Part shown: positions 28,741-63,029 of the stretch, piece by piece
Numbering within the stretch: the stretch's first letter is position 1
Layout of the letters: the number at the start of each line of letters is the position of its first letter
From: Marsupella aquatica
Taxonomy: Eukaryota; Plantae; Marchantiophyta
Length of the DNA: 64,000 nucleotides
Assembly: GCA_973895155.1 (NCBI GenBank)
Contig: OZ316891.1
Span: 21,837,168-21,901,167, forward strand
Direction: 5' to 3'
The notes under the pieces: model-generated
Seen by the model: only the letters and a program-made list of their open reading frames with translations
What the model was told of the DNA's origin: nothing
Databases searched by the model: none
Translations under genes and position numbers: made by a program

Positions 28741-28752
28741 GCAAATATGTAG

Positions 28753-29049: not shown

Positions 29050-29062
29050 ATATGTAGTAGTG

Positions 29063-32195: not shown

Positions 32196-32594
32196 CTTCT
32201 ATCTTTTACTTAGGTGGTTGCCCATGATGAATGTGTAGTTGGAAACACTAGGAATAGGACCTGATGTACTCGGGTGCTTGAAGAGCCAAAAGTGCCAGCC
32301 TCTCCATTGTCCAAGCTGCTAGCATGGTGCTGATAAGGTGATGAGGCCTCTCCAAGGCCTGTTGTACCTGCTGATCTGGGTTGGTCCACACCATGAAACT
32401 CAGAAATATTGTCAGCCATGTTACAAGGGACCTCCTCCCCCCCGATAGTTGGACTGAAGTGGTGAGTGTTGAATAGAGGTACGTGCACCTGGTCTGGATG
32501 CCATGTAGCAGCTCCATGGAGTGGTAGGGCTGGAACTCCTGATGTTGGATGAATGTACATCTGAAAAAGGATGCAAGTGACCAGAAGCCAAGTG

Positions 32595-33517: not shown

Positions 33518-33894
33518 ATCTGGAGGAGGAGTCCATGTAACTGGTGCGCTCAAGATTGGGGCTATTGGCTGTCCATTGTGCTGCCCAAGGTCTTCAAACT
33601 TGCACAATGCAGCCACCAAAGGTCCATGGGCTACTTGAAGTCGTTGTACCACCTCTGGTTGATGATCCACGTTGCTAGAAAGTGCTGCTATATGTGCAGC
33701 AGCATGTGTAGTAGCCACCTCATCGTCATCCTTCTCAATCCAATCGTGCAATGGGTGGTTGACATAGGTAGTTGTGTGCACTTCTTTCAACACACAGTGG
33801 TGAGCCATAGGTGTATGGGCACCATGCAAATCAAGTGGAATGTAGCCCAAGTGTGAGCCATCAGTATGCCAATCAACTATGTAGTATGCATGCT

Positions 33895-34235
33895 CATGCC
33901 AGTTGTCAATGGTAAAACCTGGTGGGAACAAAGCCTCTTGGCCAATGAGCACATCATATGTCGTGGCATTGGTAACCAAACATCTGAGTGGGAAATGCAA
34001 TTCCTGATCTATACCTCCATTAAAAGTGAGAGTGAGTAAAATTGAACTCTCACCCAACACATCCTCCACAGTGCCATTAGCAATCCAAATGTGCCACCTG
34101 GATTGCTATAAATGATCAGTCAGGAGTCTCATCTTCTTGGCAAACTGAATGCCCAAGATCATTGGTTGAGCGCCTGTGCCTAGCATGACCACCTAAGGAG
34201 TGTGACCCTCCAACTTGACCACTGAATTCTTGTTG
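33895..34235 (-). pseudogene. Retrotransposon aspartic protease (mirror copy)
   Basis: VMLGTGAQPMI...YDVLIGQEAL, with stops. Confidence 0.75.
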
Positions 34236-34472
34236 TCAACAATGGCAATGGTGGTGGAAACTGAAGTCCTATCACTAGGCACCACTCTCGGCAAATGATG
34301 AGGTACCTTGTGAAGGGAGTTAGTGTCCACGGTCTTTCCACTCAACAACATAGCCCAGAAAGATGGAGCAGCATGACCAGAATTAAGTGTAGCTCTGGTC
34401 ACACAATCAGCAGCAATCGGTAAAAGGGAAGCCAAACCAGTGGAAACATGTAATGGAGAAGAAGAAGGTCCA

Positions 34473-37121
34473 TGTCACCTGCTTATCAAACGATTTACAC
34501 GACAAATACGTGTTTCCTCCTACTAAAATTGTTTGTTATCGTATGACGGGAACGTGGAGGGACGCTATTAGGATTCTATTGCATGTAGGATGAGTATGTT
34601 TGATTCCGCTCCCGGAAGTGTAATTTTTGATCAAGTCTACCGACTAGCCCCTCTGCTTTTGATCAAGTCCCATGGACTACGCCACACACACACTCCTACT
34701 GGTCGCTGGTGGAGTGCTGTCACCACCCCCCCTACTCACACAGTCGACCAATCCGTGCAAGTATTCCTTAGACACTTCTTGGGAAAGAACACAATCGTGA
34801 GCCGAAAAAGATAACGCCACACCAAAATTTGAGGAATCAAACCAAATCCATATCTTTTGGCAAAAAATGGTAACACATTGCAAGGACAACCCAGCCTCCT
34901 GCCGTCTGCCCAACTCCTGCCTCGCTGGGGCAAGCGCTACACCTCTACCTCACTAGTCTGGCTTGAATTGCCCTTCTGGCTATGAGCTAACTTCCCTAAT
35001 ACCAACACTAGACTGAGTTCCCCCCCTCACTACTACGGGGCTCTCCCCCTAAATACTCAAAACAACACACCAAAGCACCCCTCACGGGGTCACAAGGATG
35101 GCGGCTACCCTAGCGGCACCGCTAAAACCTTCACAAAAGAAATCCCTAATCCTAAAGCATGCGACACACACATGCTCCTCAAACCCTAATCTAACAATGG
35201 GACTGACGATGCCTTCGATGGCGCCCCAACATTGCTCCGTGAACCGCGAAAATGCAAGGGACCCCACAATTGCCGAAACTAGGTGCCACTCTGAGTGCAC
35301 CTCTGAGCTCACCTCTGGGTAGCCCTACTCCTCCTGATCATGAATCACAAAACCGCTCTTGAAACGGACGTCGAACGACCAAGTTATGGCCGTTTCAGTA
35401 TCACTTACTCACCAACTTCGTCGGGCTCTAATTTACTCATCCTGGCTCCGTTTGAGGAGCGCCGCTTCTTGTTGAAATCAGCTCCGCGAGCTCCTTCCAA
35501 CAAGCCCGTGAGTGCACCCTTCCAAAAAGTTTCAAAATCCAGAGGTCGTATGACAAGTCCGTACGGCTACCCTAGTCCTCCTCCTCCTCACTCACGGTGC
35601 CATGGCTTGAGCCCCGTGAGTCGGTCTCTCATCACTCCTCCTCCTCACTCACGGTGCCCTGGCTTGAGCCCCGTGAGTTGGTCTCCTCATCGCTCCTCCT
35701 CCTTCTTACTCATGGTGCCCTGGCTTGAGCCCCTTGAGTTGGTCTCCTCATCGCTCTCCATTGGAGTGGATACCACTCCGCTAAACAAGGATTCACTTGA
35801 GTCCACCACCTCCTATCCTATCTATCTACCCTGCCTACCCACCTCAATCCTCTTGATCGCCACCACCGGTCTGTTGTAAAAGGAGGGGGCCCCTATAATT
35901 GTCGAAACTAAAATTTTATCAGAATTCACTTCTGAAAACATATTTGAGGAGCCCTTCTCTTCTTGATCATGGCTCCGTAAACGGTGCACAAAACGGAGGT
36001 CAAACGGCCAAGATATGGTCGTTTAAGTTTTCAGGGGACCGTCTCCCTCCGTTTCGTCCGTACAACACCAAGGGGCCCCAGCTTTGCAAAACACGGATCA
36101 CGGGTTCCCCGTATGTGTTGCTACCTCCTCCTTCCAAAGCCGGGACTTCCTGCCATACGGACGTCCGTACGGCCTCAAAATCCCCGTATTCTCAAAAATC
36201 GCGATTTGTTGTATCTCCCTCGTCTTAGCTCCGTTTTGGCCGTGTGACACATCGTTGGATTCAGCTCAACGAGCTCTTTCCAGCAAGCCCGTAGACTCCT
36301 GATTTTGAGATGGTCGAAAATCTGATGTTTGTACAACTAGGGTCCGTACACACGGTGGAAGCAAGCACAAGAGGGAAAGGGTTTAGGGTTTAGGTATGGG
36401 TAGAAACCCCACAAGTGAGAATAAAGAAAAAGGGAAGGAAGAAAGTGTGAGGGCCCATTCTACGGATGTGTTCTTCTACGGAGTGCCCCTTTACGGAGTG
36501 GGGAAGGGAAAGAGAGCAAAAACCATGTGAGAACCACACAAAGGGTGAAGGGGAACACAAGTGTGGGAACCCCTCCCTTCTAAGGGCCCTCCCACCATCA
36601 CTACTCCAAGATTGCTTAGTTTGTCGTTTTACGGGCATTGAGGTCCCTCAAGATGTCACTGTTTGATATGAACCTAAAATCAACTAGAGAACCTCAGTTT
36701 CGCATGGGGCTCATTGAGGGCTTCAAAATGAATCCAAACATGACCATGTTTGGAATAGTACTAGCGCAGCAACGTCTGTTTTAAGTTTCAATGTTTTCTA
36801 TATTTTGGTCATTCTTCCCATTTTGCGTCAAACGTGGAGCCTCCGACCAGCCCCCACCCCTCCAAGATGCCCACACCTTGGCTCCAAGTCCTTGGACTGC
36901 CTTGTGGCCTCCTTGTACCCCCTCAATGGTTCCCTTGTCATCCATCACCGCCCTACACCCCTCTCAACTCCGGCCTCCAGTTGTCGCATCCATTTATTAG
37001 AACTAACAAAAATAAAAAATTTGAAAATCCAACCACTTTTACTACACCTACTTATCTTTCTACCTATATACGCTATTATAAGTCATCACTGAGTTACTAT
37101 CGGGTTTGGGGCCCTGTCACA
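34473..37121. mobile_element. 2649-bp solo-LTR-like insertion (mirror of 49734-52382)
   Basis: TG...CA termini, 5-bp TSD GTCCA, no recognisable protein; internal repeats of about 57-60 bp at 35575-35760. Confidence 0.85.
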
Positions 37122-37306
37122 GTCCAGTATGTTCATGAGATTGGACCTCCAAAACCGGTGTCACAGGGGCTGATGAAGAATGTAGTGAACCCTCTAGCGC
37201 TTTGATGAGAGCTCTAGCATCCAATTGTAAATCATGGCAACTAAAAAGTGTTGTAAGAATCCTTTGTGCCATACCAGAGGTGAAATGCTCAAGCAGCTCA
37301 AGAGAA

Positions 37307-38137
37307 ACGAGTTATGGTCCGATCCGGGTTTGGCCGATTGGGGGTCCCAAGCGACGATACCAGCACCCACGTCCAGAACAGCTCCTTCCTTGGGCGCAGC
37401 CCAGGTTTCCCCTCGTACCTATCAATCACCAACTGAACGTGTAGCTTGTGCTAAAGCTTGTCCCAACACGTCGGGACCATAATGGCCCCAACTATAGCAG
37501 CCAACTCCTGTTTCTTGCCCCACTGATGGTCTAGGGGCCAAGTGCACTTGGAACTCAACCTCCATGCCTACTTGGTCTTGCCTCCCCAACGCAAGCTCCC
37601 TTGAGAGACTGAATGCGACTTGGTTGCTATTTCAGCAGGATTTTGCAAGCGGGCAAGAGAGCCCCTGCAAACCCCAAGAACCTATGGCACCCTCAAACCC
37701 AGATGAGCTCAAGAGGACATAACCCTTCTTGAGAGATTTCCAATGCACCCAAGAAGTCCCCCAACGGACTTCTCGTTGGGAAGTTATTGTCATTTTCGTT
37801 TGGCATTACCCCTTAGTGTTGCGATCGTTGTGGCTCACGACTTTGGCTTGCCCTTTAGCCCCCAAGGAGACATTACTCCCCTCATATATGCTTCTGGAGA
37901 TCTGCCACCCTAGACCAACTTTGGTCCCCAAATTTTGGCCCCCCACCTGGACCCCAACCCGCATGTCTGGGCGCGTCACAAACCTGGCAATGCCCATAAC
38001 TTTCTAGTTAGGTGTCCGCAAGCAGAGTGCCTTAGCCTGTTGCAATTGGGCAAACCCAGTGCTCATGCCTAGGCCCTTACATCCCATCGTCGCTTGGGAC
38101 CCCCAATCGGCCAAACCCGGATCGGACCATAACTCGT
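37307..38137. repeat. Perfect 52-bp inverted repeat (37307-37358 / 38086-38137) at the inner junction of the large duplication
   Basis: ACGAGTTATGGTCCGATCCGGGTTTGGCCGATTGGGGGTCCCAAGCGACGAT and its exact reverse complement. Confidence 0.92.
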
Positions 38138-45103: not shown

Positions 45104-45829
45104 TGTCATGCCGAGGGACAATGCCTCTTATGCACATCGGCATGTCCCTCGCATGCCCGCTAGGTATGTAGTTAGGGCTAGTGTACTACTTGAGTTAGCA
45201 ACATGTTCTTGTAGCAAGCTAGTCTGGGCCGTTCTTGAAGCAAACATGCTTGTTAGTGAGACACCAGGACTTTGCTTACTTAGGGCATGCCTTTCTTTGT
45301 TAGTTTTCACTTCTTCTTGAATCTCTGTTGATAGAGCTCAGACAGTGCTCGTCGGTTTGGTACATGGGATTCACGAAGTGATTCATTAGATGTTCCCAAT
45401 CGATCTTGGCATCTCGCCGGTTTTCGATTCAATTTCAGTACGCTTGTTTATCTTACGCCTTTTATTCAAGAAGAACTGTCAAGATAGCAGTGCCCTAGGG
45501 AATCACTCGTTGGATTATTAGAACGGGGTGCGAACAAATGAAGGTTCTTTTTAATCTTGTTGGTGTAATAATTATAATCAAAAATTTGTAATAAAGGCGT
45601 TTAAAAATCCAATTTTGGTAAAAATATTAGTTTTTATATTCAGCAAGGTATTTAAAAATTTGTCAAAGCCATATAATCAAGGGTACAAGGGTATTTTTAA
45701 TTGAATTTATTTTTTAATTTATTTTTTCAAATTTCATTAGTTTGTTCTCACGTGTTTTAGGGGTTTTACTCTAAGTGATTCCCCAGGGTAGTGGTGAGGG
45801 GAAGAAGATTGCTTGTGACAATTTTGACA
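45104..45829 (+). mobile_element. Candidate 5' LTR of the methyltransferase-bearing Gypsy element
   Basis: TGTCA...TGACA termini followed by TTTTTGGTGAAGCC (PBS-like TGG at 45835), upstream of the leader and gag. No second LTR is in the window to confirm it. Confidence 0.45.
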
Positions 45830-46309
45830 ATTTTTGGTGAAGCCATTGCAATTTCTTCGACAAACATCGGAGCGACGGACTGAAAGTTATGGGTTTATGT
45901 TGTTATGTGTATACTTAAGTGTATACACATATCAATGCTCTTGACGGGGTCCGGAGTTCCCTTTCCGGTTGCATCCACAACGCCTTTGCTGCTTCCGACT
46001 GTCACTGCCGATTGTTGCCGACTGCCAACCTGCTACCGCAAATTGCTTCCGGCTGCTGCACAGGGCGTTGCGCCTTTGCTTCCATTTCTAGCGACCTTTT
46101 GGGAGTTTGGGGCCCCTTTTTTGTAGGTTTGTATGGCCATTTCCCAGCCACAGCTACTGCGTGACCACCTTTGGACTGCCTCGGCCACCGACTACTTCCT
46201 GGCTGCATAGGGCCGCGCGCTAGTTTTTCTTTCGGCCCTTTCTTACACCCTTTTTGCCTCCATTGCCTTGCCATTCCTTCCGCTTTGGTGTGCAGGCTGT
46301 GCATAGGGT

Positions 46310-46790
46310 TTTAGCATTAAAGCAGGGGAGGGGGAATTCAATTAGACTCCCTTCTCTTGGGAGTAGGTTCACCCGTGGCTAGGCAGGAGCGCAAGGAGAG
46401 GGCACAAAGCCCTATGAAGCTTTAAAGGAGGGGGAGCGAGTGCCAGGAGAGGGCACGAGGCCCTATGAAGCATTAAAGGGGGAGGGGAGGGAAGTACATA
46501 CGACTCCTTCCCTCAGGAGTCCTCTTGCAGGGCACGAAGCCCATCCAACAGCGTTAAGGAGGGGAGGGGGAAGCGAGTGCCAAGAGAGGGCTTGAGGCCC
46601 TAGGCAACATTAAAGGAGGGGAGGGGAGTTCAATTTGAACTCCCTCACATGGGAGTCTTTTGCTAGGGCACGAGGCCCTATGAAGCATTAAAGGGGGAGG
46701 GGAGGGGAGTTCGTAGCCCCCCTCTTCGGGAGCTCATAAGGAGGGTGGAGGGTGCTCAAAGCCCTATGCAGGGCCCGAGCCCATTAAGGG
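46310..46790. repeat. Degenerate G-rich tandem repeats in the Gypsy leader (GGGCACGAGGCCCTATGAAGCATTAAAGGGGGAGGGGAGGG)
   Basis: About 6-7 diverged units of roughly 50-80 bp. Confidence 0.8.
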
Positions 46791-47549
46791 GCCCGTTTCT
46801 TCTTCCTTGCCTCACCGGCTCCCCGTTTCTGTTTTCTTTTTGCCTTGCCCTTTGCCACCCGACTGTCAGTGAATAGGGCACCAATTCTCCTTTTTGCCTT
46901 GCCACTGCCATCGCGAGTTGTCTCCGTATTTCTTTCTCGGGGTCTGGTTGCTACATAGGGATGCGAGCCTGGTTTGTGTAGACACCTCTCGCTTGTGCAT
47001 ACACATTGGGGACCCCTTTTTGCCGTTTCCTCTTGGTTTCGTTCGCTTCATTATTTTGACCCTTTTAGGCAAGGCCCCGATGCCCCGATGCCCCGATGCC
47101 CCGGCCTCCTTGCCTCACACCGTTTGTTTCATTGTGGGTTAATTTTCTAGCCTTGGGGCTGCCATTTCTTTTTCTTGTCAGTTTCTTTCCCGACAGCACC
47201 TCACACCACCAGAAAAAGAGGGGGGGGGGGGTGGAGACATATCCTGTTGCTACCATTTCCAATTTGGCATCTTGGGTACTGTCACACAACATGTCAGCAG
47301 ACAAGCCGGGAGGTAGCAGCTCACCGCCACCAACACCCCGGTACCACTTACGGAGTGATCCACGACCGTTGGTGCCAATTTTATTGGAATCTCAATAATT
47401 TCAATGGCGTCAGTAGATAGCAGCAACACCCACATCACGCAACCCTTATGCTACATTTGGCAGTCGCTTCACCACTACCCCAAAGCCTGCTATTGCTTCT
47501 TTACCCTTTACTTCTTCTGCATCAATGGTTGTTCCAGCTTCACCGACAT

Positions 47550-49733
47550 ACAACATGGCCGTCAGCCACTCATCTGGCCGCATTGAGCGCTTTAGCAAGC
47601 GGCCAGACTGTTTCTTTGCGTGAGTTCAAATCCACTTTCTACACTGTCATTTACAAATTGGAGTTGATGTATGGCAGCAATTTCACAAATGCATTTGTAT
47701 TTAAGCAACTAGCCAGGTATGTGCACCATGAGGCTTTGGATGTGTATGAGTAGCACTCTCAACGGCTGCTTGCTGTCACACAATTGCCTAACCTTGCCTA
47801 TGCCAGTGCAATTGCGGTAGCCTCACAATTGGCCTTATAGAATGCCATTGCAGCCCATGCTGCTGCTCTTGCCACTTCCCCTCCTACTCTAGTTCCTACC
47901 ATTGCGCCAGTTACTCCCACTGTGAGTCTTGGCACAGGCTACATCGGGCATTTCTCCCACCATTGATTCCCATGCCTTTGCTGATCCAATGGCTGAGTTT
48001 TTCCAGGTTCTTGAATTAGAATTCCCAATCAAGAGTGCTGACAAAATCATGCAGTTGGCCACCTTTGTGAGGCAGCGCGCTGAAACACTGAAGATGATGT
48101 ATTGTCGGCTTCTCAAGCTGAAAGAGGACACCCAGAGCATCACTGACCTAGAGGCTCGGGGGTCTCACTATATGGGGACCTCCCCATTGCCTGCAACGTT
48201 TTTAGGCCTCGGACCCCCTAAAATGTAAGAAAAAAAATTTATTTTTTAACCCCTATAAAGTTGGAATATTCTTGGAATATTCTAAAATTTGGATTAAAAA
48301 GACCCTTATATTCTTATAAGTCTCAAAATTGAATTTAAAAGACCCTATTGTTCTTCTACAAAAATTCTTAAGTCTTCCCTTAGAACCAATAAAATGACCC
48401 TATCCTTCGTCGCACGTGATATGCCATTTTTGTGGAAGTGAGACCCCCGAGCCTAGAGGCTGCTCATTGCTATCTTCATGCATCGGAGGGCACACCAGCT
48501 CTCCATTCGCAAGTGTTGCAGCAAGAATTCTCAGAGTTTGGAGATAGCTACACATTTCTCAATATCTATGAAACTGCTGAGAAACTTGAGTTGGCCCATG
48601 CACATTATGAGGCCAGTATTGCGTGTCCATCGTGATCCAGGTATCAGGCTGTTGCCTCCACACTGGCCACTCCTTCCAGTGTACCACAATATGGTCCAAT
48701 ACCAAGCAAGCACATGCTGCTTTCATGCTGCCATCGTGCAACTATTGTGGTAACCCTAATCACAAGGCTAATGAATGTGATATTATTGCTGAGGACCTAT
48801 CTTGTGATTTTTGTGGGAAAATGGGCCATTTGGAGGCAATTTGTTTTGCCAAATTCCTAGAGAGGAAGCAGCTACGACAACAGGCCCCTCATCCTGCTCC
48901 TGCTTCCACTCCCCCACCAGCTAGGAGGGCTCCTATTGCCTCAGTTGCTCCTCCTTCCAGTGGCAAAGCACCCGGTGCCAACAAATCGCCCAAGCAGCAA
49001 CAGAAGCAACCAGCTCAGAAGGAGGCTCACAACGCACAGGCAACTCAACTCCAATCTCTGACTCATGAGGTTAAGTCCTTACGTGCCAAACTTGCCAACA
49101 TCAAAGGCAAGTCCACTGCCTCTATTGGTCCTTCTCAACCGGCTGGTCACGTGCAACCCATCCCTGGTCCAGGCACCATTGATAGTTCAACACCTCTACC
49201 TCGCTTTTTCTATGGCTTGCCATTTGATGCTCATATGGGTGAGCATGTGTTGTCCTCTGCTACACAGCTTGGCCTTACAGCAAAATTTTCAGATTCATTC
49301 TGCCCATCCTATTTTGCTTACCAGCACGCTAGTACTGCCTCTCGTACTGCTCCCACACGCCGCATTGTACAGGCTGATGGTGTTGCTGCCGGTCCTATGA
49401 CTAGAGCTAAGGATGCTTGAGCTGTCATGCCCTAATCTTTTTAGCCACTCATGCTTGCTAAAGAGCGCATCTTGTTGGCGAGGGGGGAGGGAGCTGCAGC
49501 TACATCCATTCCACCACCAGGTGTTGCTGACATTTCACAGGGAGTTGTTTCTCTTGAGCTGCTTGAGCATTTCACCTCTGGTATGGCACAAAGGATTCTT
49601 ACAACACTTTTTAGTTGCCATGATTTACAATTGGATGCTAGAGCTCTCATCAAAGCGCTAGAGGGTTCACTACATTCTTCATCAGCCCCTGTGACACCGG
49701 TTTTGGAGGTCCAATCTCATGAACATACTGGAC
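47550..49733 (+). pseudogene. Gypsy gag with two CCHC zinc knuckles, interrupted by MITE copy 2
   Basis: DPMAEFFQVLELEF...FVRQRAETLKMMYCRL; CNYCGNPNHKANEC and CDFCGKMGHLEAIC (about 48737-48844); stops present. Confidence 0.8.
48155..48451. mobile_element. 297-bp MITE, copy 2
   Basis: Perfect 15-bp TIR CTCGGGGGTCTCACT/AGTGAGACCCCCGAG; 8-bp TSD CCTAGAGG (48147-48154, 48452-48459). Confidence 0.96.
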
Positions 49734-52382
49734 TGTGACAGGGCCCCAAACCCGATAGTAACTCAGTGATGACTTATAATAGCGTATATAGGTAGAAAGA
49801 TAAGTAGGTGTAGTAAAAGTGGTTGGATTTTCAAATTTTTTATTTTTGTTAGTTCTAATAAATGGATGCGACAACTGGAGGCCGGAGTTGAGAGGGGTGT
49901 AGGGCGGTGATGGATGACAAGGGAACCATTGAGGGGGTACAAGGAGGCCACAAGGCAGTCCAAGGACTTGGAGCCAAGGTGTGGGCATCTTGGAGGGGTG
50001 GGGGCTGGTCGGAGGCTCCACGTTTGACGCAAAATGGGAAGAATGACCAAAATATAGAAAACATTGAAACTTAAAACAGACGTTGCTGCGCTAGTACTAT
50101 TCCAAACATGGTCATGTTTGGATTCATTTTGAAGCCCTCAATGAGCCCCATGCGAAACTGAGGTTCTCTAGTTGATTTTAGGTTCATATCAAACAGTGAC
50201 ATCTTGAGGGACCTCAATGCCCGTAAAACGACAAACTAAGCAATCTTGGAGTAGTGATGGTGGGAGGGCCCTTAGAAGGGAGGGGTTCCCACACTTGTGT
50301 TCCCCTTCACCCTTTGTGTGGTTCTCACATGGTTTTTGCTCTCTTTCCCTTCCCCACTCCGTAGAGGGGCACTCCGTAGAAGAACACATCCGTAGAATGG
50401 GCCCTCACACTTTCTTCCTTCCCTTTTTCTTTATTCTCACTTGTGGGGTTTCTACCCATACCTAAACCCTAAACCCTTTCCCTCTTGTGCTTGCTTCCAC
50501 CGTGTGTACGGACCCTAGTTGTACAAACATCAGATTTTCGACCATCTCAAAATCAGGAGTCTACGGGCTTGTTGGAAAGAGCTCGTTGAGCTGAATCCAA
50601 CGATGTGTCACACGGCCAAAACAGAGCTAAGACGAGGGAGATACAACAAATCGCGATTTTTGAGAATACGGGGATTTTGAGGCCGTACGGACGTCCGTAT
50701 GGCAGGAAGTCCCGGCTTTGGAAGGAGGAGGTAGCAACACATACGGGGAACCCGTGATCCGTGTTTTGCAAAGCTGGGGCCCCTTGGTGTTGTACGGACG
50801 AAACGGAGGGAGACGGTCCCCTGAAAACTTAAACGACCATATCTTGGCCGTTTGACCTCCGTTTTGTGCACCGTTTACGGAGCCATGATCAAGAAGAGAA
50901 GGGCTCCTCAAATATGTTTTCAGAAGTGAATTCTGATAAAATTTTAGTTTCGACAATTATAGGGGCCCCCTCCTTTTACAACGGACCGGTGGTGGCGATC
51001 AAGAGGATTGAGGTGGGTAGGCAGGGTAGATAGATAGGATAGGAGGTGGTGGACTCAAGTGAATCCTTGTTTAGCGGAGTGGTATCCACTCCAATGGAGA
51101 GCGATGAGGAGACCAACTCAAGGGGCTCAAGCCAGGGCACCGTGAGTAAGGAGGAGGAGGAGCGATGAGGAGACCAACTCACGGGGCTCAAGCCAGGGCA
51201 CCGTGAGTGAGGAGGAGGAGTGATGAGAGACCGACTCACGGGGCTCAAGCCATGGCACCGTGAGTGAGGAGGAGGAGGACTAGGGTAGCCGTACGGACTT
51301 GTCATACGACCTCTGGATTTTGAAACTTTTTGGAAGGGTGCACTCACGGGCTTGTTGGAAGGAGCTCGCGGAGCTGATTTCAACAAGAAGCGGCGCTCCT
51401 CAAACGGAGCCAGGATGAGTAAATTAGAGCCCGACGAAGTTGGTGAGTAAGTGATACTGAAACGGCCATAACTTGGTCGTTCGACGTCCGTTTCAAGAGC
51501 GGTTTTGTGATTCATGATCAGGAGGAGTAGGGCTACCCAGAGGTGAGCTCAGAGGTGCACTCAGAGTGGCACCTAGTTTCGGCAATTGTGGGGTCCCTTG
51601 CATTTTCGCGGTTCACGGAGCAATGTTGGGGCGCCATCGAAGGCATCGTCAGTCCCATTGTTAGATTAGGGTTTGAGGAGCATGTGTGTGTCGCATGCTT
51701 TAGGATTAGGGATTTCTTTTGTGAAGGTTTTAGCGGTGCCGCTAGGGTAGCCGCCATCCTTGTGACCCCGTGAGGGGTGCTTTGGTGTGTTGTTTTGAGT
51801 ATTTAGGGGGAGAGCCCCGTAGTAGTGAGGGGGGGAACTCAGTCTAGTGTTGGTATTAGGGAAGTTAGCTCATAGCCAGAAGGGCAATTCAAGCCAGACT
51901 AGTGAGGTAGAGGTGTAGCGCTTGCCCCAGCGAGGCAGGAGTTGGGCAGACGGCAGGAGGCTGGGTTGTCCTTGCAATGTGTTACCATTTTTTGCCAAAA
52001 GATATGGATTTGGTTTGATTCCTCAAATTTTGGTGTGGCGTTATCTTTTTCGGCTCACGATTGTGTTCTTTCCCAAGAAGTGTCTAAGGAATACTTGCAC
52101 GGATTGGTCGACTGTGTGAGTAGGGGGGGTGGTGACAGCACTCCACCAGCGACCAGTAGGAGTGTGTGTGTGGCGTAGTCCATGGGACTTGATCAAAAGC
52201 AGAGGGGCTAGTCGGTAGACTTGATCAAAAATTACACTTCTGGGAGCGGAATCAAACATACTCATCCTACATGCAATAGAATCCTAATAGCGTCCCTCCA
52301 CGTTCCCGTCATACGATAACAAACAATTTTAGTAGGAGGAAACACGTATTTGTCGTGTAAATCGTTTGATAAGCAGGTGACA
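49734..52382. mobile_element. 2649-bp solo-LTR-like insertion between gag and protease
   Basis: TGTGAC...GTGACA termini; 5-bp TSD TGGAC (49729-49733, 52383-52387); removing it restores the frame HEHTG-PSSSPLH. Confidence 0.87.
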
Positions 52383-52619
52383 TGGACCTTCTTCTTCTCC
52401 ATTACATGTTTCCACTAGTTTGGCTGCCCTTTTACCGATTGCTGCTGATTGTGTGACCAGAGCTACACTTAATTCTGGTCATGCTGCTCCATCTTTCTGG
52501 GCTATGTTGTTGAGTGGAAAGACCGTGGACACTAACTCCCTTCACAAGGTACCTCATCATTTGCCGAGAGTGGTGCCTAGTGATAGGACTTCAGTTTCCA
52601 CCACCATTGCCATTGTTGA

Positions 52620-52960
52620 CAACAAGAATTCAGTGGTCAAGTTGGAGGGTCACACTCCTCAGGTGGTCATGCTAGGCACAGGCGCTCAACCAATGATCTT
52701 GGGCATTCAGTTTGCCAAGAAGATGAGACTCCTGACTGATCATTTATAGCAATCTAGGTGGCACATTCGGACTGCTAATGGCACTGTGGAGGATGTGTTG
52801 GGTGAGAGTTCAATTTTACTCACTCTCACTTTTAATGGAGGTATAGATCAGGAATTGCATTTCCCACTCAGATGTTTGGTTACCAATGCCACGACATATG
52901 ATGTGCTCATTGGCCAAGAGGCTTTGTTCCCACCAGGTTTTACCATTGACAACTGGCATG
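52620..52960 (+). pseudogene. Retrotransposon aspartic protease (catalytic D replaced by G)
   Basis: VMLGTGAQPMI (consensus LDTGA), IRTANG flap, YDVLIGQEAL; stop at 52747-52749. Confidence 0.78.
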
Positions 52961-53337
52961 AGCATGCATACTACATAGTTGATTGGCATACTGATGGCTC
53001 ACACTTGGGCTACATTCCACTTGATTTGCATGGTGCCCATACACCTATGGCTCACCACTGTGTGTTGAAAGAAGTGCACACAACTACCTATGTCAACCAC
53101 CCATTGCACGATTGGATTGAGAAGGATGACGATGAGGTGGCTACTACACATGCTGCTGCACATATAGCAGCACTTTCTAGCAACGTGGATCATCAACCAG
53201 AGGTGGTACAACGACTTCAAGTAGCCCATGGACCTTTGGTGGCTGCATTGTGCAAGTTTGAAGACCTTGGGCAGCACAATGGACAGCCAATAGCCCCAAT
53301 CTTGAGCGCACCAGTTACATGGACTCCTCCTCCAGAT

Positions 53338-54260
53338 GGCCTTACATTGCTTGAACTTTTTGGTGGCATTTCTACAGGCCTAGAATCTCTCCTACAATCT
53401 GGCATGGTGGTGAGGTAGTACATCTACGTGGATATTGATCCAAGTGCAAGACAAGTGGCTGAATCCTGTCTGCTGGAATTTTCAAAGCGATTTCCCCAGC
53501 AATTTCCACACAGTGCATGGAAGTTTGCCTTTTCTTTCTTCCCTCTAGATATCCAGCACCGACACTTAACCCTTCTTGGCTCCCTTGATTTGATCATAGC
53601 TGGTTGGGAATGCCAAGGATTTTCAGCTGCTGGTCACGATGTTGGATTGCACATTGATTCTTGTTCTGGCCTTTTCACAGCATTGGTTCAGGTTCTTACC
53701 TGGGCTCAGGCCCTCTACCCTGTTGTTGGTTACATCATTGAGAATACTCCATCTCAGTTTGACCAACATCCACAGGTCAAAGAGGATTTCAGTATGGTCC
53801 AACACTACTTGGGACCACCCCTTCTCATTGATGCAGTGCACTATGGTTCTTATGCACATCATCTTTGTAACTTTTGGACTAACCTTGCACCACCTTCCTT
53901 GCTGGAGTTAGCTCTTCACCACACATCCAAGGACACTAACCTCACAGTGGACCAGATTTTGGATACTGCCAGTTCTTGCCAACCAGCTACACGACAGGAG
54001 CCAGCCCCTTGGTATCCAGCCAATACCATTGGAGAGCCCCGTGCTGCTTGGCCTACATTTGTGTCCTTTCCAGGTGCCCATGCTTTTCAGGGTGATGGTC
54101 CTGGCCTGGTTTATCGACATTCTACCAGTACATGGGATGAACCTAGTCCTGAGGAGAGAGAACGGGCTATGGGCTTCCAATCCGGTCCTACAGGCCACAC
54201 CCAAATCACCAGGCTGGCCAGGAATGCTTTACTTGGCAGGGTAATGGATCTCAATGCTCT
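53338..54260 (+). pseudogene. C5 DNA cytosine-methyltransferase domain embedded in Gypsy pol between protease and RT
   Basis: Motifs in canonical order: I LELFGGISTG; II YIYVDID; III LDI; IV DLIIAGWECQGFSAAG; V SGLF; VI YIIENT; VII/VIII IDA..GSYAHHLCNFWTN; IX EERERAMGF; X RNALLGR. Same reading frame as the protease, with one TAG at 53416-53418. Confidence 0.88.
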
Positions 54261-54659
54261 CACTTGGCTTCTGGTCACTTGCATCCTTTTTCAGATGTAC
54301 ATTCATCCAACATCAGGAGTTCCAGCCCTACCACTCCATGGAGCTGCTACATGGCATCCAGACCAGGTGCACGTACCTCTATTCAACACTCACCACTTCA
54401 GTCCAACTATCGGGGGGGAGGAGGTCCCTTGTAACATGGCTGACAATATTTCTGAGTTTCATGGTGTGGACCAACCCAGATCAGCAGGTACAACAGGCCT
54501 TGGAGAGGCCTCATCACCTTATCAGCACCATGCTAGCAGCTTGGACAATGGAGAGGCTGGCACTTTTGGCTCTTCAAGCACCCGAGTACATCAGGTCCTA
54601 TTCCTAGTGTTTCCAACTACACATTCATCATGGGCAACCACCTAAGTAAAAGATAGAAG

Positions 54660-56655
54660 GACCAGCTGCTGAATTTGCTCCTCAAGCATGAGAATGTGTT
54701 TGCTTTCTCTATGAAGGACTTGGGTAAGTGCAAGACTATGCAGTTCCCCATTGAGTTGGCTGATGAAACACCTATCTTCAAGCGGAGACACCGTTTGAGT
54801 AAGCATGAGTGGCAGCTGGTGGATGAGAGGTGCCAAGAGCTCTATGAAGCTGGTCTTATTGAGCCATCTACATCAGATTTTGTAGCAGCTACAGTGATGC
54901 CAACAAAGAAGGATTTCAGTGGATTGTGGACAGAGAAGCGCATGTGTGGGGACTATAGGCCACTGAACCTGGTCACACCCCAGGACAGGTATCCCATGCC
55001 ACGGCCAGAGGAGCTATTTGACAGCATTGGAGACTCAGACATCTTTACTCTTGTGGATCTAAGGCAAGGCTTTAACCAGATTTTGCTGCTTGCAAAGGAC
55101 CGCAAGAAAAAAAATTTCCATGGTAGTAACCAACTAAGTATGGGAGTGGTTGGTGATGCCATTTGGCTTGAAGAATGCGCCCATATTCTTTCAAAGAGTC
55201 ATGGACCAGGTTCTTCAAGGTGCTGAGTTTCTAAAATGCTACATTGATGATGTGTTGGTCCACAGCAAAGGATTTGACCAGCATCTACTTGACCTTGAGG
55301 AGCTATTCTTGAGGCTTAAGAAGGTGAACCTAAAGATACACCCCAAGAAGTGTGAATTTGCTGTCAGATCAATAATATACCTTGGGCATCGCATTATTCC
55401 AAATGGAACCATGGCTCACTGGGCAAGGTAGTATCCATCTTGGAAATGCCCACTCCTACTGATGTTCACACTTTTAGGAGCTTTATTGGGTTGTGCAATT
55501 ACTACCGGATCTACATCAAAGATTTCAGTACCATTGCACACCCATTGTACTCTTTGTTGAAAAAGAATGTGACTTGGACATGGAGTACAGATGTTGAGGC
55601 AGCATTTGCCACTTTGAAGGAGAAGCTCTCAGAATACCCGGTGTTGAGAAGACCTGATTTTAGCAAGGTCTTTGTGCTACACACAGATTGGAGTGCCCTT
55701 GAGATTGGTGCCATTTTGGGCCATCATGATGAGGAAGGTAAAGAGTACGTCATTGCCTATGCATCCAAGAGCAACAATCAGGCAAAGAGTCATTATTCTT
55801 CTTATGAGGGTGAATGCCTTGCTGTTGTGTGGGCTGTCATACATTACAGGCCCTACCTCTATGGGACCAGATTTACTCTCTACACCAACCACCAGCCCTT
55901 GAAGTGGTTGATGACTAACGAAAGCTTACTGGCAAGCTTGCTTGTTGGACACTCATACTCTAGGAGTATGACTTTGAGGTAATTCATAGGCCTGGTGTGA
56001 CACATCAGAATGCTGACACTATGTTCTGCACCCTTTTGATTACCTCTGATGATTCCTCAGATGCACGACAGGATTTTGACCAGGTTTCCATCCTACCTGC
56101 ATTTCATGCATCTACCTATCTTGCTTTGCTGCCATGCTACGTTGTTGACCAACCTGTGGTGGACATATGGGAGGACAACAATACTCTGAGATTTCTACAG
56201 CATGGAGAATACCCCACACATGTCACTGCAGCCCAGAGAGACCAAATTCAATAGAGGTCCAAGCGCTACTTGTGGAAGGGAGATCATCTTGTGCGCTGCT
56301 TGCCAGACAGGGAAGTGGTGGTTCCACCCATTCATGAGAGGGTTAGCCCTATCCGTAAGGTACATTCTAAGCTTGGTCATTTTGGCATTAAGAGGACTTA
56401 CAGCCTCTTGGTTCCCCATTATCATTGGAGAGGCATGCATGGCCAGGTTTGGGATGTTATTGCCTGGTGTGAATAGTGTGATAGGTGAGGACTTTTTTCA
56501 CATCTCAGCAACCCACACTTCATCCATTCCCTATTCAAGGCATGTTTCATCGTTGCTCATGTGATTTGGCTGGAGAATTGCCCCTCACATCTCGGGGTAA
56601 TCTCTACATCATGATCATGATAGAGCATTTCTCCAAGTGGATAGAACTTGTGGCA
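54660..56655 (+). pseudogene. Ty3/Gypsy RT, RNase H and integrase N-terminus
   Basis: RMCGDYRPLN, QDRYPMP, MPFGLKNAP, YIDD, TDWS, YEGECLAVVWA, H-x4-H...C-x2-C, IEHFSKWIEL; frameshifts and stops; cut at 56656 by an LTR. Confidence 0.94.
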
Positions 56656-57792
56656 TGTCACACCATTCTAGGTAGTGTTAGAGTGTATCGTACTATCTAG
56701 ATCCGTATATTTGGTATGTGTGCTATATGAGCCGATAAGGTTCCGTTAGGTTTGTGTGAGAGGGTACTTCTCACTTGTGAGGCATTGAAAAGTCATCTTT
56801 CAATGTTGAGCCTTGGAGAGAGAGGAGCTTGAGTGTGGCTATGGTGGCTGTGAGCTCCGCTTGTGTAACATGGATTCCTTGAGTAGTGCAAGGTGCATTG
56901 GCTTAACATACGTGTGTGATTGGATCGGTGCGGAATCGATGGGGTATTGTTGACCGGGATCGTTGTGCCGATTGTTGAGGAGATTACATTGAAAGATCAT
57001 GAGCTTCAAACTCTATTGTGCAGACAGAAGCTCAGTTTGAGTTTGTCGTTGACGGTGACGGTTCGTGGTAGCTCAAATCAATTGGATTTGTGTTTGACGC
57101 GGATTCATGTTTCTTGAATCGTTGGTTCAGATATTGTTTGAGTACACTGTTGCTATTCGATCTGGTTTTGGCCAAGCTTGAACGTTGTTGGATCTGGATC
57201 TGGTCTAGATCTGGATCTGGATTGAGTCGGAGTCTAGATCTGGAAAGAGATGGCCAAAGGTTGCTGCTTGTATTGCGCTGCTATTTTGTGGACAGGTCTG
57301 TTGGAATTTTGAGTGCTCGAAGCGTTTTATTGTCAAGGGACGCTTGCGGAATGTCCCAAAACTGTGTGCGACAGGTTTGCGGAGGTCGAGAGCCATCAAC
57401 GTTGCCATTTTTGTGAAGGAAATTGCTGCTTTTGAGTGGCAAATATTGCCATTTTTGAGCCCGACGACTTTTGTTTTGTGTACACACACAACTGTGCGCG
57501 CATAAGGCGAATCGCAAGGTCATCCATCCCAGGACTATTTCGAGTCGCAAGCGCAAGGTGAAGTGCAAGGTCACCCATCCTGGGACTATTCCGAATTGCG
57601 AGCACAAGGCGAAGCGCAAGGCCACCCATCCCGGGGCTATTCCCAGCCGCGAGCGTTTAACTGGCAAGTTCTCATCCCACCTTGTGTACACACAAGCTTT
57701 CACAACTTGTTGTTTAGATTCAAGCCCCAGGGGGCTTTATACACTTTTCGGTTTGCTTAGAGCCTTGTTTCGGGCCAAATCAGAGGCTCTTT
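56656..57792 (+). mobile_element. Partial LTR inserted into the integrase
   Basis: GTGGCA|TGTCACACC here versus the uninterrupted GTGGCATTGCCG at about 58842 in the sister copy; homologous to 60141 onward. Confidence 0.72.
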
Positions 57793-58027
57793 CACTACTA
57801 CATATTTGCCAATTTTGCGAAGGCGTTTTACAAGAGGAAGAAAGCTTTGCAAGATTAATCTCATCGCTAACCTTGCGATACGATACGTATCGCACTTAGC
57901 GAATCTACACATATCGCAACACATAATTGCGAAACTTAGACCATCGCAACATTTTACGACACTTCAGGTATCGCAAAACATTTCCGAAGCAATTACCATT
58001 GAACAAGTTAGCGATCTTTACCACTTC
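57793..58027 (-). mobile_element. 235-bp duplicated terminus of CACTA-2 with intact TIR
   Basis: CACTACTACATATTTGCC followed by TTGCGA/TCGCAA repeats. Confidence 0.9.
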
Positions 58028-58029
58028 AT

Positions 58030-59824
58030 TACATTACAGGCCCTACCTCTATGGGACCAGGTTTGTTCTCTACACCGACCACCAGCCCTTGAAGTGGTTG
58101 ATGACCAACGACAAGCTTACTGGCAAGCTTGCTCTTTGGGCACTCATACTCCAGGAGTATGATTTTGAGGTAATTCATAGGCCTGGTGTGACACATCAAA
58201 ATGCTGACACTATGTCCCACAGCCCTTTGATTGCCTCTGATGATCCCTCAGATGCACGGCAGGATTTTGACCAGGTTTCCATCCTGCCTACATTTCATGC
58301 ATCTACCTATCTTGCTTTGCTGCCATGCTACATCGTTGACCAACCTGTGGTGGACATATGGAAGGACAGCGACACTCTGAGATTTTTGCAGCATGGGGAG
58401 TACCCCACCCATGTTACTGCTGCCCAGAGAGACCGAATTCAGCAAAGGTCCAAGCGCTACTTGTGGAAGGGAGATCATCTTGTGCGCTGCTTGCCAGACA
58501 GGGAAGTGGTGGTTCCACCCATTCATGAGAGGGTTGGCCTTATCCGTAAGGTACATTTTGAGCTTGGTCATTTTGGTGTTAAGAGGACTTATAGCCTCTT
58601 GGTCCCCCATTATCATTGGAAAGGCATGCATGGCCAGGTTCGAGATGTTATTGCCCGATGTGAGCAGTGTGATAGGGTAAGGACTTCTTTCACATCTCGG
58701 CAACCCACACTTCATCCACTCCCTATTCAGGGCATGTTTTATCGTTGGTCATGTGATTTGGCTGGAGAATTACCCCTCACATCTTGGGGTAATCTCTACA
58801 TCATGATCATGATAGAGCATTTCTCCAAGTGGATAGAACTTGTGGCATTGCCGGATAAGACCTCCCGTAGCACCAGCCAGGCATTCCTAGAACAAGTTCT
58901 CAGCCGCTTTGGAGCTTGTGCAGAATGTCTCACTGACCAGGGCTCAGAGTTTAGAGGAGAGTTCCAGGAGCTGCTTGATCAGGCCCTCATTGATCATCGC
59001 TGGACATCACGAGATCACCCATAGGCAGATGGCTTGGCAGAGCGCATGGTTTAGACATGCAAGAAGGGCCTTCGGAAGATCTGCCTCACCAAAAACAAGG
59101 AGGATTGGGACCTGGCCTTACCCTACATTACCATGGGGTATAGGATGTCTAGACATGCATCACTGTCTAACTTTTCTCCCTACTTCTTGTTGTTTGGTCG
59201 TCACCCAGTTCCACCTTCTGCTATTGCTGCTCACATGCTTCAGGTGGTGGACTTGGATTCAGCTGTGACTTGGTCTGATGTGATCTCTGAGAGGGCTGCC
59301 CTATTCAGGAGGGTTATGCCCATGGCCATGGAGAATTTGGCCATTGCACAGCACAGGGACACATTGCGTTATGCACACACACGACGGGGCACTTTTCAGC
59401 CCAAGGTCAGGAAGTTTGATGTGGGAGATTTTGTGTACTTGCAGCGGCAAGCTAACGACACCCTGGACACCTCTACCAGTCGTACTATTCTCAAGGTTAA
59501 AGCTATTCGACCGTCTGGAGTGCTGACAGGTCAAAGCGGTCGAATAGCGTCTGGAGTGTTGACAATAAGCGCATAATTGTTGACAATGCCAAGAACTGCG
59601 CCCCTTGTCATCTGCCTAACCTGGATCCCACCATTGTGACTTCTACTTGGATTCCACCTGTGGACTACCCTTGCAAAGTGTGTTTGCGAATTGATGATGC
59701 TGACCAGATGTTGCTGTGTGACAATTGCAATGGAGGGTACCATCTTTTCTGCCTTTGGCCTGAACTTACTCAGGTGCCAAAAGGATTATGGTTTTGCCCT
59801 TCCTGTGCTCCACGTGCTACCTGA
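58030..59824 (+). pseudogene. Sister Gypsy copy: RNase H end, integrase and C-terminal PHD finger
   Basis: Closely similar to 55840-56655 but less decayed; HFELGHFG...CEQC, CDLAG, LTDQGSEF, DGLAER, SPYFLLFG; PHD CKVC...LLCDNC...YHLFCL...WFCPSC at about 59672-59805. Confidence 0.92.
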
Positions 59825-60140
59825 CTTTTCTTCAACCCTCCTTTTGGTTGTGGTCTGGGGGGGATACAGAGGTTTACACCTCCACTACGTACATACCACC
59901 TCATTTGCTTTTTCTTGGCACTTGTAAATGTGATGAGACTTTTTCTATGCATGTTGGTTGCTAGCAGCTTGCACATGTGCATTGCCAGTGCTTTGTATGT
60001 TTTTGATACACTATGGCTACGATACTATATGTCATGACAACATTAAAATATTGGGCTAGTTCATTTTGAAAAGATTAACCAAAGTCCAAAGGGTTGAAAG
60101 CAAAGGTCTAAAGAGGACAAATCCCAACCTAAATGTCGAT

Positions 60141-63029
60141 TGTCACACCATTATGAGTGGTAGTATAGGATATCGGACTATGTAGGTTTGAGGCTTTCAT
60201 ATGTGTGTTATCTAAGTGTTTTAGGGTTAATGTATGTTTGTGAGGGATAGTTATATATCTCTAAGTTGTGTTGGCTCAAAGGTCTCATCTTTTGATATTG
60301 AGCCTTTCGAGCACAAACTCTAGCGGCTATGGTGTGGCTGTCTAGGTTGTGTGTACGTAACGTGGATTCCTTGAGGCAGAAGGTGCGTTTGGCTTGACAT
60401 AAGTGTGTGATCGCGTCGGGCAGGATTGTGTGTTGGATTAGCATCAATCATTGTTTGATTGCTCTTGAAGATTACATCAAAAGATCGGCTTCAAACTCTG
60501 TTGTGCAAACTGTGCAGACAGAAGTTTGATTTCATTTTGGTTTTGTTGTTGACGATTCATGGTAGCTCGGATCGGGTGTTTTTATTGAATGGATCGTTGG
60601 TATCTCAATCTATTGCAAGTTGGTGCGGCGCTTGCGTAGTTCAAGTGAAGCTTCAAGTTGTTGTTGCTAAGTTGCGGTTTTGGAGTTGTGGTCTTCATTG
60701 ATATGCATTGCTGCATTGTGGAGGACTGATTGTGTGATCGACAAGCGGATGTTGCTGTTGACAATTGTGTGTGAGACGGACGATGGCGTCTTGTCCTATT
60801 TTGTGAAGGGAAAGTAGTCAGATGTGCGACTCTTTGAGGTTTTGATTGAGGTGGTTTGATTGGGAGCCCGATAGTTGATTATGTTTACAATTTTTGTAGG
60901 ATGCAGTTATGATTTGCATCAAGTTCCTTGTTGATGGATAGTGTGTTTCTATGAACGAAACAACGTTGAATGTTGGTGAATTGTGTTGGTGGCGCGCGAC
61001 AAGATAAGGCACCGTGGAGAGGCAAGGCGGCTGTGACTTAGGGCACAGAGGAAACAACAAATAGTGAATAGTGATTTTCCTGTCAATTGTGGCGTGTTTA
61101 GCACATGACTTGAGCGAAGAGAGTCTTGGTGGGGAGGCACCCACAACCCACGGCCTGTGGCCGATTCATCTTGGTTGTGTGGGTTGGCACCCACAGCCCA
61201 TGGCTTGTGGCCTCTTGCAGTTTGGTTGCGTGGGTAGTCACCCACAGCCCACGGCCTGTGGCCGATTCATCTTGTTTGTGTGGGTAGGTACCCACAGCCC
61301 CTGGCTTGTGGCCTAGGGTTTTGGAATCACAGTCTTCCAATAATGCAAAGCTACTTGGTGAACAACGGACCGGTTTCACTCGAAGTGGAGTGCAGTTTTG
61401 GCCAACAACATTGCTAGCAGATACCAGTGGAGCTTCATATAGTGATTTTGACAAGGGCTCTGTAGCCAACTCTCCTCATCATCAGGTTGTTGCACCATTG
61501 TTGTGGGATATGGAGGAGACGTATGGGTCCACTAAGGGCCCTAGGAGATACTCTGGTGCAGTTGGCACAATTGATTTGGATGATTTCATCCAAGATTTTG
61601 ATACGTGGTGTGATATGCAAACAATGCGTAATGCCACATTGTTTAGACCTTTCATGGCATGAAAAGGGTTGTTTCAGCATTTGGAGGGTCCACCCATGGA
61701 TGATTACCATGAGTTTTGGAAGACCCATTTGGCTGATATTGAGATATGGAGACAACACTGGTCACCAAACTATGTGTCCATCACTTACGGCACAAGTGCG
61801 GTTTCTCAACCTGTTGCCCCGACTTTTGCTTCTTCTAGTAGCACTAGCCAGAGTGGCACTCCACCAACATCCACCGTTACTCCTACCGGTGCAATTGTGG
61901 GTGGGAGTGGAGTTGTGCCAACATTTAACCCTATGGTGAAGTTCTTTGATGTGTTGAAGTAGAACTACCAGGGTGTGAGAACTGATAAGTTGAAGGGTCT
62001 TCAAGATTTTCAGCGCAAGACTGGAGAGAGTCTACACAAAGCATACACTCGTATGCGAAGATATATTAATTACAGTCACCAAGGGAGTGACAGAGGCCCA
62101 AGTAGTTCAATTTTGGTATGCAATTTTGGATAGAGAGTTGCGGCGTAGAGTAAGAGACGCCACTCTATTGAGGGATTCAGATTCCACATTGGCTGTTGTT
62201 TTTGCACTAGCCGAGCGCATTGAGCTCAATATGGTGAATGAGAAGGTGGTGACTTCCGGATTTGTCAAGGAAGGCTCACCAAAGGTTGCATCTACACCCA
62301 CACTGCAACCTACTGTAAGGAAGAGCCAGAGGGAGAAGCCTACAACATGGGAATCTACTAGTCAGAGACCTGTGCCCTCCTATGCTGGACAACAGTCATG
62401 ATGTTGGACTTGTGGTGGGGATCATGCATGAAGATATTGCCAAGATAATAGAGGGTCCGGAGGGGCATCTATGCCCGATCAACGATTATGTGATCATTGT
62501 GGAGTTTCTGGTCACACCAAGGATAGGTGTTTTATACTCCATCCTGAACTACAACGGGGAGGATCATGTACGTATGATCAGGGAAGAGGAGGTAGAGGTG
62601 GTGGTCGCGGCCGAGGTATGCCATATGCAAGGAGACAAGGAGGTGATGCTCCTGCCACTACCATAGATCCAAAGGATGAAAAGATTGCTCAATTGGAGCA
62701 ACAACTAGCTGCCATGGCGAGTTCTCAGGTTAGACCTACTTCTGGTGATGGAGCCTCTACATCCTATGGAGCTGACGGAGACTTGGCCACCATGGGATTC
62801 ATGTGTGACATTGCCCATGTTGATGCATTGGCAACTTTGACTCGAGGAGCAACCAAAGCCCTTGAGCCCCGAGGAGCAATGGTAGAGTTGGATCCTCAAA
62901 GGGGGGAAGCTTGTCGTCAAACGAAGCTTCCCCAATCATTTACATTGTTAGAGGCAGTTTAAACTAACTCTATAAACCCGGTTAAGACAAATCCAAGTGT
63001 GGATAAGTTGGTGGAATTGGATAATGTTG
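60141..63029 (+). mobile_element. 5' part of another Ty3/Gypsy element (LTR, leader repeats, decayed gag)
   Basis: TGTCACACCATT start shared with 56656; repeats of about 50 bp at 61137-61312; gag downstream. The LTR 3' end is not resolved. Confidence 0.7.
61345..62962 (+). pseudogene. Gypsy gag with zinc knuckles
   Basis: DLDDFIQDFDTW; NPMVKFFDVLK.NY...FQRKTGESL..AYTRM (homologous to the gag near 47985-48120); CWTCGGDH and CDHCGVSGHTKDRC; stops and frameshifts. Confidence 0.78.

Follow-up and report, generated by a model that had tools for sequence, protein, structure and literature searches.

A Ty3/gypsy retrotransposon family pairing a DNMT3-like methyltransferase with a PHD finger at the end of its integrase

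Main finding

The window, a 64,000-nucleotide stretch of Marsupella aquatica contig OZ316891.1 (assembly GCA_973895155.1, positions 21,837,168 to 21,901,167 of the forward strand), holds a dead copy of a Ty3/gypsy family whose integrase is followed by a complete PHD finger, together with a second partial copy that carries a DNMT3-like C5-cytosine methyltransferase (DNMT). By sequence comparison, close relatives of this family belong to mosses and liverworts, and in relatives the order of domains is gag, protease (PR), DNMT, reverse transcriptase (RT), RNase H (RH), integrase (IN), and PHD. The finger is likely to read unmethylated H3K4, and it probably aims the integrase at chromatin bearing that mark, with the DNMT acting separately on the new copy.

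The integrase and PHD finger of copy 2

The PHD-bearing copy comprises the following features:

58030-60039, + strand: copy 2 as a whole, with its 5′ part missing
58030..59411, + strand: RNase H end and integrase (HHCC 58554-58670; D 58755, D 58935, E 59040; stops at 59022 and 59052)
59412..59617, + strand: C-terminal beta domain of the integrase (by analogy with retroviral integrases, SH3-like), which is broken near 59524-59569 and has NCAPC at its end
59672-59806, + strand: complete C4HC3 PHD finger (Pfam), the last Pol domain of copy 2
59853..59863, + strand: G-rich polypurine tract (PPT), directly before repeat B
59864..60039, + strand: terminal repeat B, ending ...GACA, a single B that forms the 3′ end of copy 2

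The integrase is of the rve type with HHCC and D, D, and E residues. The original prediction that it ends in a complete C4HC3 PHD finger rather than a chromodomain was borne out by Pfam (PHD, E 4.3e-12; score 46 bits, cut-off 24) and by the downstream sequence, where a stop codon at 59822-59824 closes the PHD frame and is followed by the polypurine tract and the terminal repeat, with no chromodomain after the finger. The Chromo domain also had no matches in the window's ORFs or in 43 Pfam scans of relatives. Other copies, in contigs of runs X1-X4, part from the window sequence at 60039-60041.

Copy 2 has its PHD out of frame with the integrase: stop codons occur at 59022, 59052, and 59574, and the sequence is locally disrupted near 59524-59569. 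Of the 27 distinct related insertions, 22 keep the finger in frame, at 48-54 nt after the C-terminal piece of the integrase. The sequence NCAPCHLP, encoded at 59594-59617 upstream of the PHD (within 59501-59824), had been taken for a linker. A structure model of a natural relative, the IN-PHD frame of metagenome locus L020 (47 sequences, pLDDT 86), instead assigns NCAPC to the C-terminal beta domain of the integrase as its final strand. The model shows, in order, the catalytic core, a C-terminal domain of five strands, the last at residues 272-275 (CAPC), and the finger, and it matches the integrases of PFV and Ty3. An invariant Cys ends the integrase C-terminal domain just upstream of the PHD, and an NCAPC-like motif is also kept in three PHD-less relatives (P0040, P0021, and P0008).

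The DNMT-bearing copy 1

The DNMT lies upstream in a longer copy of the same family, with these features:

45104..45465, + strand: terminal repeat A, starting TGTCATG, the likely 5′ end of copy 1
about 45104-56655, + strand: extent of copy 1 (gag, protease, DNMT, RT, RNase H, and the first part of integrase)
47400..49500, + strand: decayed gag with zinc knuckles, interrupted by a MITE-like insert
48154-48451: the MITE-like insert in gag, ~298 bp, with an 8-bp duplication
49734..52382, no strand assigned: unrelated nested insertion between gag and protease, TG...CA, 5-bp duplication, solo-LTR-like
52642..52980, + strand: aspartic protease with an altered active-site motif and a stop at 52747 (Pfam match in relative P0002)
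53338..54290, + strand: DNMT3-like C5-cytosine methyltransferase with a stop at 53416 (motifs I 53353; IV, GWECQ, 53602; VI 53737; VIII 53854, decayed; X 54235)
54657..55910, + strand: reverse transcriptase (YIDD at 55240) and RNase H, frameshifted
55911..56655, + strand: N-terminal part of integrase, cut at 56656 by the terminal sequence of another element, with the remainder outside the window

The claim that the two copies are closely similar over ~800 bp was confirmed by alignment of 58030-58848 with 55840-56656, which are 92.2% identical over 819 nt, 57 of the 64 differences being transitions. CpG observed/expected was 0.18 in copy 1 from PR to IN, versus 0.33-0.37 in copy 2, gag, and neighbouring transposons, which gives no usable sign of self-methylation.

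Linkage of DNMT and PHD in relatives

Because the original prediction joined DNMT and PHD across two partial copies, the link was examined in relatives. The window DNMT was aligned with three relatives, and the best 80 of 520 metagenome loci were taken (53-70% DNMT identity). Both IN and PHD were present in 37 of the 38 loci among these best 80 that extend at least 4.3 kb behind the DNMT start, and the sole long locus without a PHD, L044, breaks off inside the integrase core. The loci that reach the PHD (n=38, again among the best 80 of 520) represent 27 distinct insertions when collapsed at 97%, and in 35 of the 38 the spacing from DNMT to PHD is 3.89-4.07 kb (about 4.0 kb). Their linker-PHD regions are 64-91% identical to that of the window. 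All of these loci are decayed, and none of the 38 has an unbroken frame from DNMT to PHD, the longest covering 60%.

A more distant relative, P0038, encodes PR-DNMT-RT-RH-IN-PHD as one 2358-aa ORF, thereby showing, in a relative, the single polyprotein with a DNMT3-like domain and a PHD that had been proposed. Other single ORFs cover parts of this order, namely gag-PR-DNMT-RT (P0025), DNMT-RT-RH (P0001 and L002), and IN core to PHD (L020, 346 aa). The link across the two window copies is thus upheld by relatives. In the species itself, contigs of runs X1-X4 cover both the DNMT and PHD parts, and in them no joint spanned 56655 to 58849, so they give no direct in-species bridge from DNMT to PHD.

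Named relatives of the DNMT come from Calypogeia fissa (70%), Sphagnum compactum, and S. magellanicum, with Haematococcus lacustris further off. Spliced Sphagnum gene models P0144 and P0156 fuse pieces of the element and can pass for host DNMT-PHD genes, which calls for caution in annotation. Locus L031 has a family copy arranged tail to tail with a far more distant IN-PHD tail (6228-6716, − strand; 36-39% identity).

Position and separability of the two domains

A reverse search with the L020 IN-PHD frame against 1.84 billion representatives gave 457 matches under 1e-30, of which the best 150 were analysed with custom profiles. A PHD was present in 144 of these best 150. Among the 46 IN-PHD representatives in the same best 150 of 457 that reach RH, 38 carry a DNMT, located between RH and IN in 36 and before RT in 2, and 8 have none, 7 of which have little or nothing upstream of RT. 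The finding that would have counted against the link, full-length PHD copies without a DNMT, did not come true for the window's family; among these 8, the one that looks full-length is the distant P0274 (2435 aa; PHD, no DNMT detected). Conversely, relatives P0043, P0008, P0021, and P0040 have a DNMT without a PHD. In these comparisons, pairing of DNMT and PHD is the rule, yet either domain can occur without the other.

Algal-type elements, ordered RT-RH-DNMT-IN-PHD, have the DNMT immediately in front of the integrase. The window's clade places its DNMT ahead of RT, and most other elements place theirs behind RH; the PHD keeps its place on the integrase in both. An integrase tree was built from 65 rows (FastTree, midpoint-rooted, without an outgroup, weak backbone). 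In it a single clade (support 0.96), lying among elements whose DNMT follows RH, contains every element with DNMT before RT as well as the window and L002; the direction of the move does not follow from this tree. The GWECQ motif is mostly common to both placement types. Together these patterns suggest a single capture of the DNMT followed by one move.

Some algal-type relatives (P0013, residues 1395-1574, P0034, P0005, and 67 of the best 150 of 457) bear a further C-terminal domain, which Atlas places near phage SAM-dependent/N6 methyltransferases with scores of 0.94-0.95, to be read as a lead only. If this domain is N6-methyltransferase-like, a DNMT3-like domain, a PHD, and a DAM-like domain can share one Pol.

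The methyltransferase domain and selection

The best PDB matches of the DNMT are DNMT3A, DNMT3C, and DNMT3B, with E about 1e-8. Motif IV in the window is GWECQ rather than the usual PC form; in 85 proteins with both DNMT and IN, GWECQ was found in 34 and GWPCQ in 8, and motif IV was not located in 26. The retention of GWECQGF in 27 of 27 loci is circular, as the motif was a search pattern.

Between the window and related loci, dN was 0.17 for the PHD, 0.26 for the DNMT, and 0.15 for RT, within a range of 0.10-0.26 over all domains and with silent sites saturated; low dN at saturated silent sites shows that selection maintained PHD and DNMT in active lineages. Among loci, dN/dS was 0.29 for the PHD, 0.38 for the DNMT, and 0.38 for RT, versus 0.42 for the DNMT-RT linker (4 loci), values that hardly differ and, the copies being decayed, make a weak test.

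Predicted ligand of the PHD finger

The closest solved PHD structures in the PDB are those of Lid/KDM5 PHD1, CHD4, WSTF, ATXR5, and BAZ2B. The tryptophan of the aromatic cage presumably sits two residues before the zinc-binding His, as in ING/BPTF-type fingers. At that position Trp is absent from all 132 full C4HC3 relatives counted (12 further PHDs without a pattern match being left out), Gly occupies it in 116 of the 132, and the window and 26 of 27 related loci also have Gly there, the remaining locus having Arg. Features of H3K4me0 readers, namely lack of an aromatic cage and a hydrophobic residue before Cys3, are present in the family PHD, and Asp follows Cys3 in 124 and PxGxW occurs in 96 of the 132 relatives. 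Of the acidic cluster before Cys1, one Asp at -3 (D-Y-P-C) is left, most acidic residues lying in loop 1.

According to the portion of the literature consulted, readers of H3K4me3 require an invariable Trp, and readers of H3K4me0 have no cage and carry acidic residues before Cys1 (PMC3241642). A finger of the H3K4me3-reading ING/BPTF type was therefore rejected, given 0 of 132 with the cage Trp. The missing Trp and the resemblance to KDM5, BAZ, and ATXR5 fingers make it likely that the family PHD reads unmethylated H3K4.

Proposed roles of reader and writer

It is regarded as probable that the PHD steers the integrase toward chromatin with unmethylated H3K4 and that the DNMT acts separately on the new copy. 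The finger, judging from its missing cage Trp and its nearest solved counterparts, would bind the unmethylated histone H3 tail and tether the integrase to chromatin without H3K4 methylation, the job of the chromodomain in chromoviruses, and insertion would be directed away from active promoters. As the element encodes a protease, the DNMT and IN-PHD are probably in different mature proteins; the protease would free the DNMT3-like domain apart from IN-PHD, and the freed enzyme may then methylate the element's own cDNA or the fresh insertion. Reader and writer would share one aim, a copy that both lands in and resembles silent chromatin, without forming one module.

The idea of a coupled, ADD-like reader-writer, as originally put forward, was not supported, because the PHD is an integrase tail and RT, RH, and IN lie between it and the DNMT. 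It is accordingly considered unlikely that the PHD, like the ADD of DNMT3, recruits or activates the DNMT on H3K4me0 chromatin, whether in an uncleaved polyprotein or in the integration complex. H3K4me0, the predicted ligand of the PHD, is also the ligand of the DNMT3 ADD, which counts for such coupling, as do the very frequent co-occurrence of the domains (38 of 46 RH-reaching IN-PHD representatives among the best 150 of 457) and the algal-type order that places the DNMT immediately before IN-PHD. Against these points, about 1,300 residues and three domains separate DNMT and PHD in the window's family, P0274 carries a PHD with no detected DNMT while P0043, P0008, P0021, and P0040 carry a DNMT with no PHD, and the finger is a C4HC3 on the integrase rather than an ADD beside the enzyme.

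Somewhat less probable again is a PHD that serves as a structural or non-histone extension of the integrase, contributing to intasome stability or binding host proteins or the end junction, with no H3 reading. The weak acidic cluster before Cys1 and the invariant Cys that closes the integrase C-terminal domain would suit such a role, and some plant PHD-like domains do not bind H3, according to the consulted part of PMC9640981; however, even very distant elements retain features that bind the H3 N-terminus (Asp after Cys3, PxGxW), and the close matches are known H3 readers. Chance juxtaposition of a DNMT and a PHD from two families sharing an integrase region, for which the placement of the two domains in separate window copies (92% alike, junction at 58027-58030) might speak, is highly improbable given runs X1-X4 contigs that cover both parts, and is refuted for relatives by collinear DNMT and PHD in 37 of 38 testable loci with 53-70% DNMT identity.

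With PHD-directed integration and separate methylation of the new copy as the preferred reading, both PHD-guided integration and transposon self-methylation become testable in moss and liverwort genomes with many copies.

Terminal repeats and the route of integration

Relatives have the layout A-coding-PPT-B-A-B, in which A begins TGTCATG and B ends ...GACA, giving TG...CA ends. The 3′ repeats of the 27 distinct insertions are B-A-B in 17, B-A in 2, and B only in 8, and the upstream end is always a single A (17 of 17 distinct insertions whose 5′ end was covered). The 4-bp target duplications were exact in 9 of 13 cases, agreed in 3 of 4 letters in 2, and failed in 2, in which the end was probably called one sub-repeat early. 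The 4-bp duplications and TG...CA ends show DDE-type insertion. A DIRS/PAT tyrosine-recombinase retrotransposon was considered and rejected, as the elements have instead an rve integrase, a PFV/Ty3 fold, and 4-bp duplications.

The inner junction between B and A is a near-palindromic CA-NN-TG with a 2-nt spacer in 18 of 18 cases (GC, AC, GT, or AT). This junction resembles the circle junctions of IS3-type elements. In run X3, three contigs continue past B plus 2 nt with the sequence found at window position 45104 (the first 18 nt of A match), and in other contigs the sequence ahead of B is similar to the window near 45465, the end of A; the B-NN-A junction implies that the host's own family has the same A-coding-B-A-B layout. 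No obvious tRNA primer site was found after A in L002 (5544-14858) or in 26 other distinct loci.

Since the polypurine tract precedes B, ordinary reverse transcription would leave B-A at each end and place the integrase sites internally, so the genomic form needs the left B to be shifted to the right end. Cutting of end-joined cDNA at CA-NN-TG would accomplish this shift, and the element's ends would be rebuilt from the internal B-NN-A junction. The end structure is thus hinting at a non-standard, perhaps circular, integration substrate. Under the simplest two-LTR-circle model, A-B-A-coding-B should arise as well; its absence from all 17 distinct insertions whose 5′ end was covered makes that model less likely. 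Single-B copies are compatible with both B-B recombination and direct integration.

A fuller account, tentative and open to considerable doubt as a whole, would describe an old green-lineage Ty3/gypsy clade, from chlorophytes to mosses and liverworts, in which an H3K4me0-reading PHD aims the integrase, a DNMT3-like enzyme moved slots once, and the DDE integrase cuts the internal CA-NN-TG junction of end-joined (circular) cDNA to give A-coding-B-A-B with 4-bp duplications, a route without LTR-retrotransposon precedent in the literature searched. If true, DDE integration from joined or circular cDNA would depart from the rule that LTR retrotransposons integrate linear cDNA.

Relation to known elements

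DNMT3-in-Gypsy and PHD-in-Gypsy have each been published, apart from one another, in KnitGypsy-Dnmt3 and in Gypsy-7a of Chlamydomonas. KnitGypsy-Dnmt3 of Klebsormidium nitens carries a DNMT3 in a Gypsy Pol and has DIRS-like repeats (de Mendoza et al. 2018, PMC5890265); in the portions consulted, its isolated DNMT was inactive in yeast, a result the authors call inconclusive, and the capture is presented as specific to the K. nitens lineage. The element is termed 'Gypsy-DNMT3 of streptophytes' in the accessible part of bioRxiv 10.64898/2026.05.21.726589. The present family shares with it an intronless DNMT3-like domain in a Gypsy Pol, A-coding-B-A-B repeats, and PR-RT-RH-IN with a DDE integrase, although window copy 2 itself has B only, without B-A-B. 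In contrast to a capture confined to K. nitens, relatives here occur in liverwort, moss, and chlorophyte records, which widens the range of Gypsy elements bearing a DNMT3 from a single alga to land plants and chlorophytes and adds a likely targeting module. The PHD, land-plant members, target duplications, and internal junction are not in the text of that account; 'PHD' is absent from the main text and three supplements of PMC5890265 (text, not figures). No named K. nitens element was among the matches of any sequence search.

The suggestion that integrase-PHD fusions may be known in algae is supported in that a PHD-Gypsy fusion is described for Gypsy-7a_cRei of Chlamydomonas reinhardtii (Craig et al. 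2023, PMC9940879). In the consulted sections, this element has a PHD in its Gag-Pol, proposed to limit harmful insertions as may be the case here, an LTR drawn in subparts, and a 2.6-fold intergenic excess that may reflect selection, per the authors. Unlike the present family, it has no DNMT in its domain legend (PMC9940879). No PHD passage was found in the portion consulted of the Chlamydomonas comparative genomics paper. REM1, which Perez-Alegre reportedly described in 2005, is said to group with Gypsy-7a_cRei as a PHD-Gypsy element of Chlamydomonas.

Chromoviruses likewise carry a histone-reader module at the integrase C-terminus, and the reader here is a PHD rather than a chromodomain and the ends are split repeats. 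The plant LTR survey of Neumann et al. 2019 (PMC6317226), in the text consulted, places the Tcn1 clade of chromoviruses in mosses and contains neither 'PHD' nor 'methyltransferase'. EpiLTRs, in the accessible part of the preprint (bioRxiv 10.64898/2026.05.21.726589), combine DAM, a DNMT4-related DNMT, and a chromodomain; they resemble the present family as retrotransposons with a DNA methyltransferase and a histone reader and differ from it, as here the enzyme is DNMT3-like, the reader is a PHD, and Pol ends at the PHD with no DAM (algal-type relatives may have one). PHD-retrotransposon fusions have been reported in cnidarians, according to the part of 10.1101/2021.11.30.470311 consulted.

An arrangement of the DNMT3 ADD type was rejected, since the PHD comes after IN, about 4.0 kb past the start of the DNMT. 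The ADD of DNMT3 is a reader fused directly upstream of the methyltransferase. In the literature searched (subscription papers, theses, and Repbase being outside its scope), no paper on DNMT3, PHD, and Gypsy together in land plants and no description of the internal junction were found. The freshest detail is the end structure, A-coding-B-A-B with its CA-NN-TG junction.

Other features of the window

TGTCACACC marks the start of another element, present as two window copies at 56656-58027 and 60141-62962 that are about 69% alike, the second of which runs into decayed gag. A second copy of the ~298-bp MITE-like insert, also with an 8-bp duplication, lies at 28752-29049. An inverted duplicate of 8.26 kb (29050-37308 and 49547-57805, 99.66% identical) spans PR-DNMT-RT-RH and nested insertions and is either a recent segmental duplication or an assembly artefact. 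Two CACTA-type transposases (4940-11277, − strand, and 22972-27402, + strand) each adjoin same-strand chromatin-type domains, one having a BRCT and three NSD-like PHDs and the other a SET domain.
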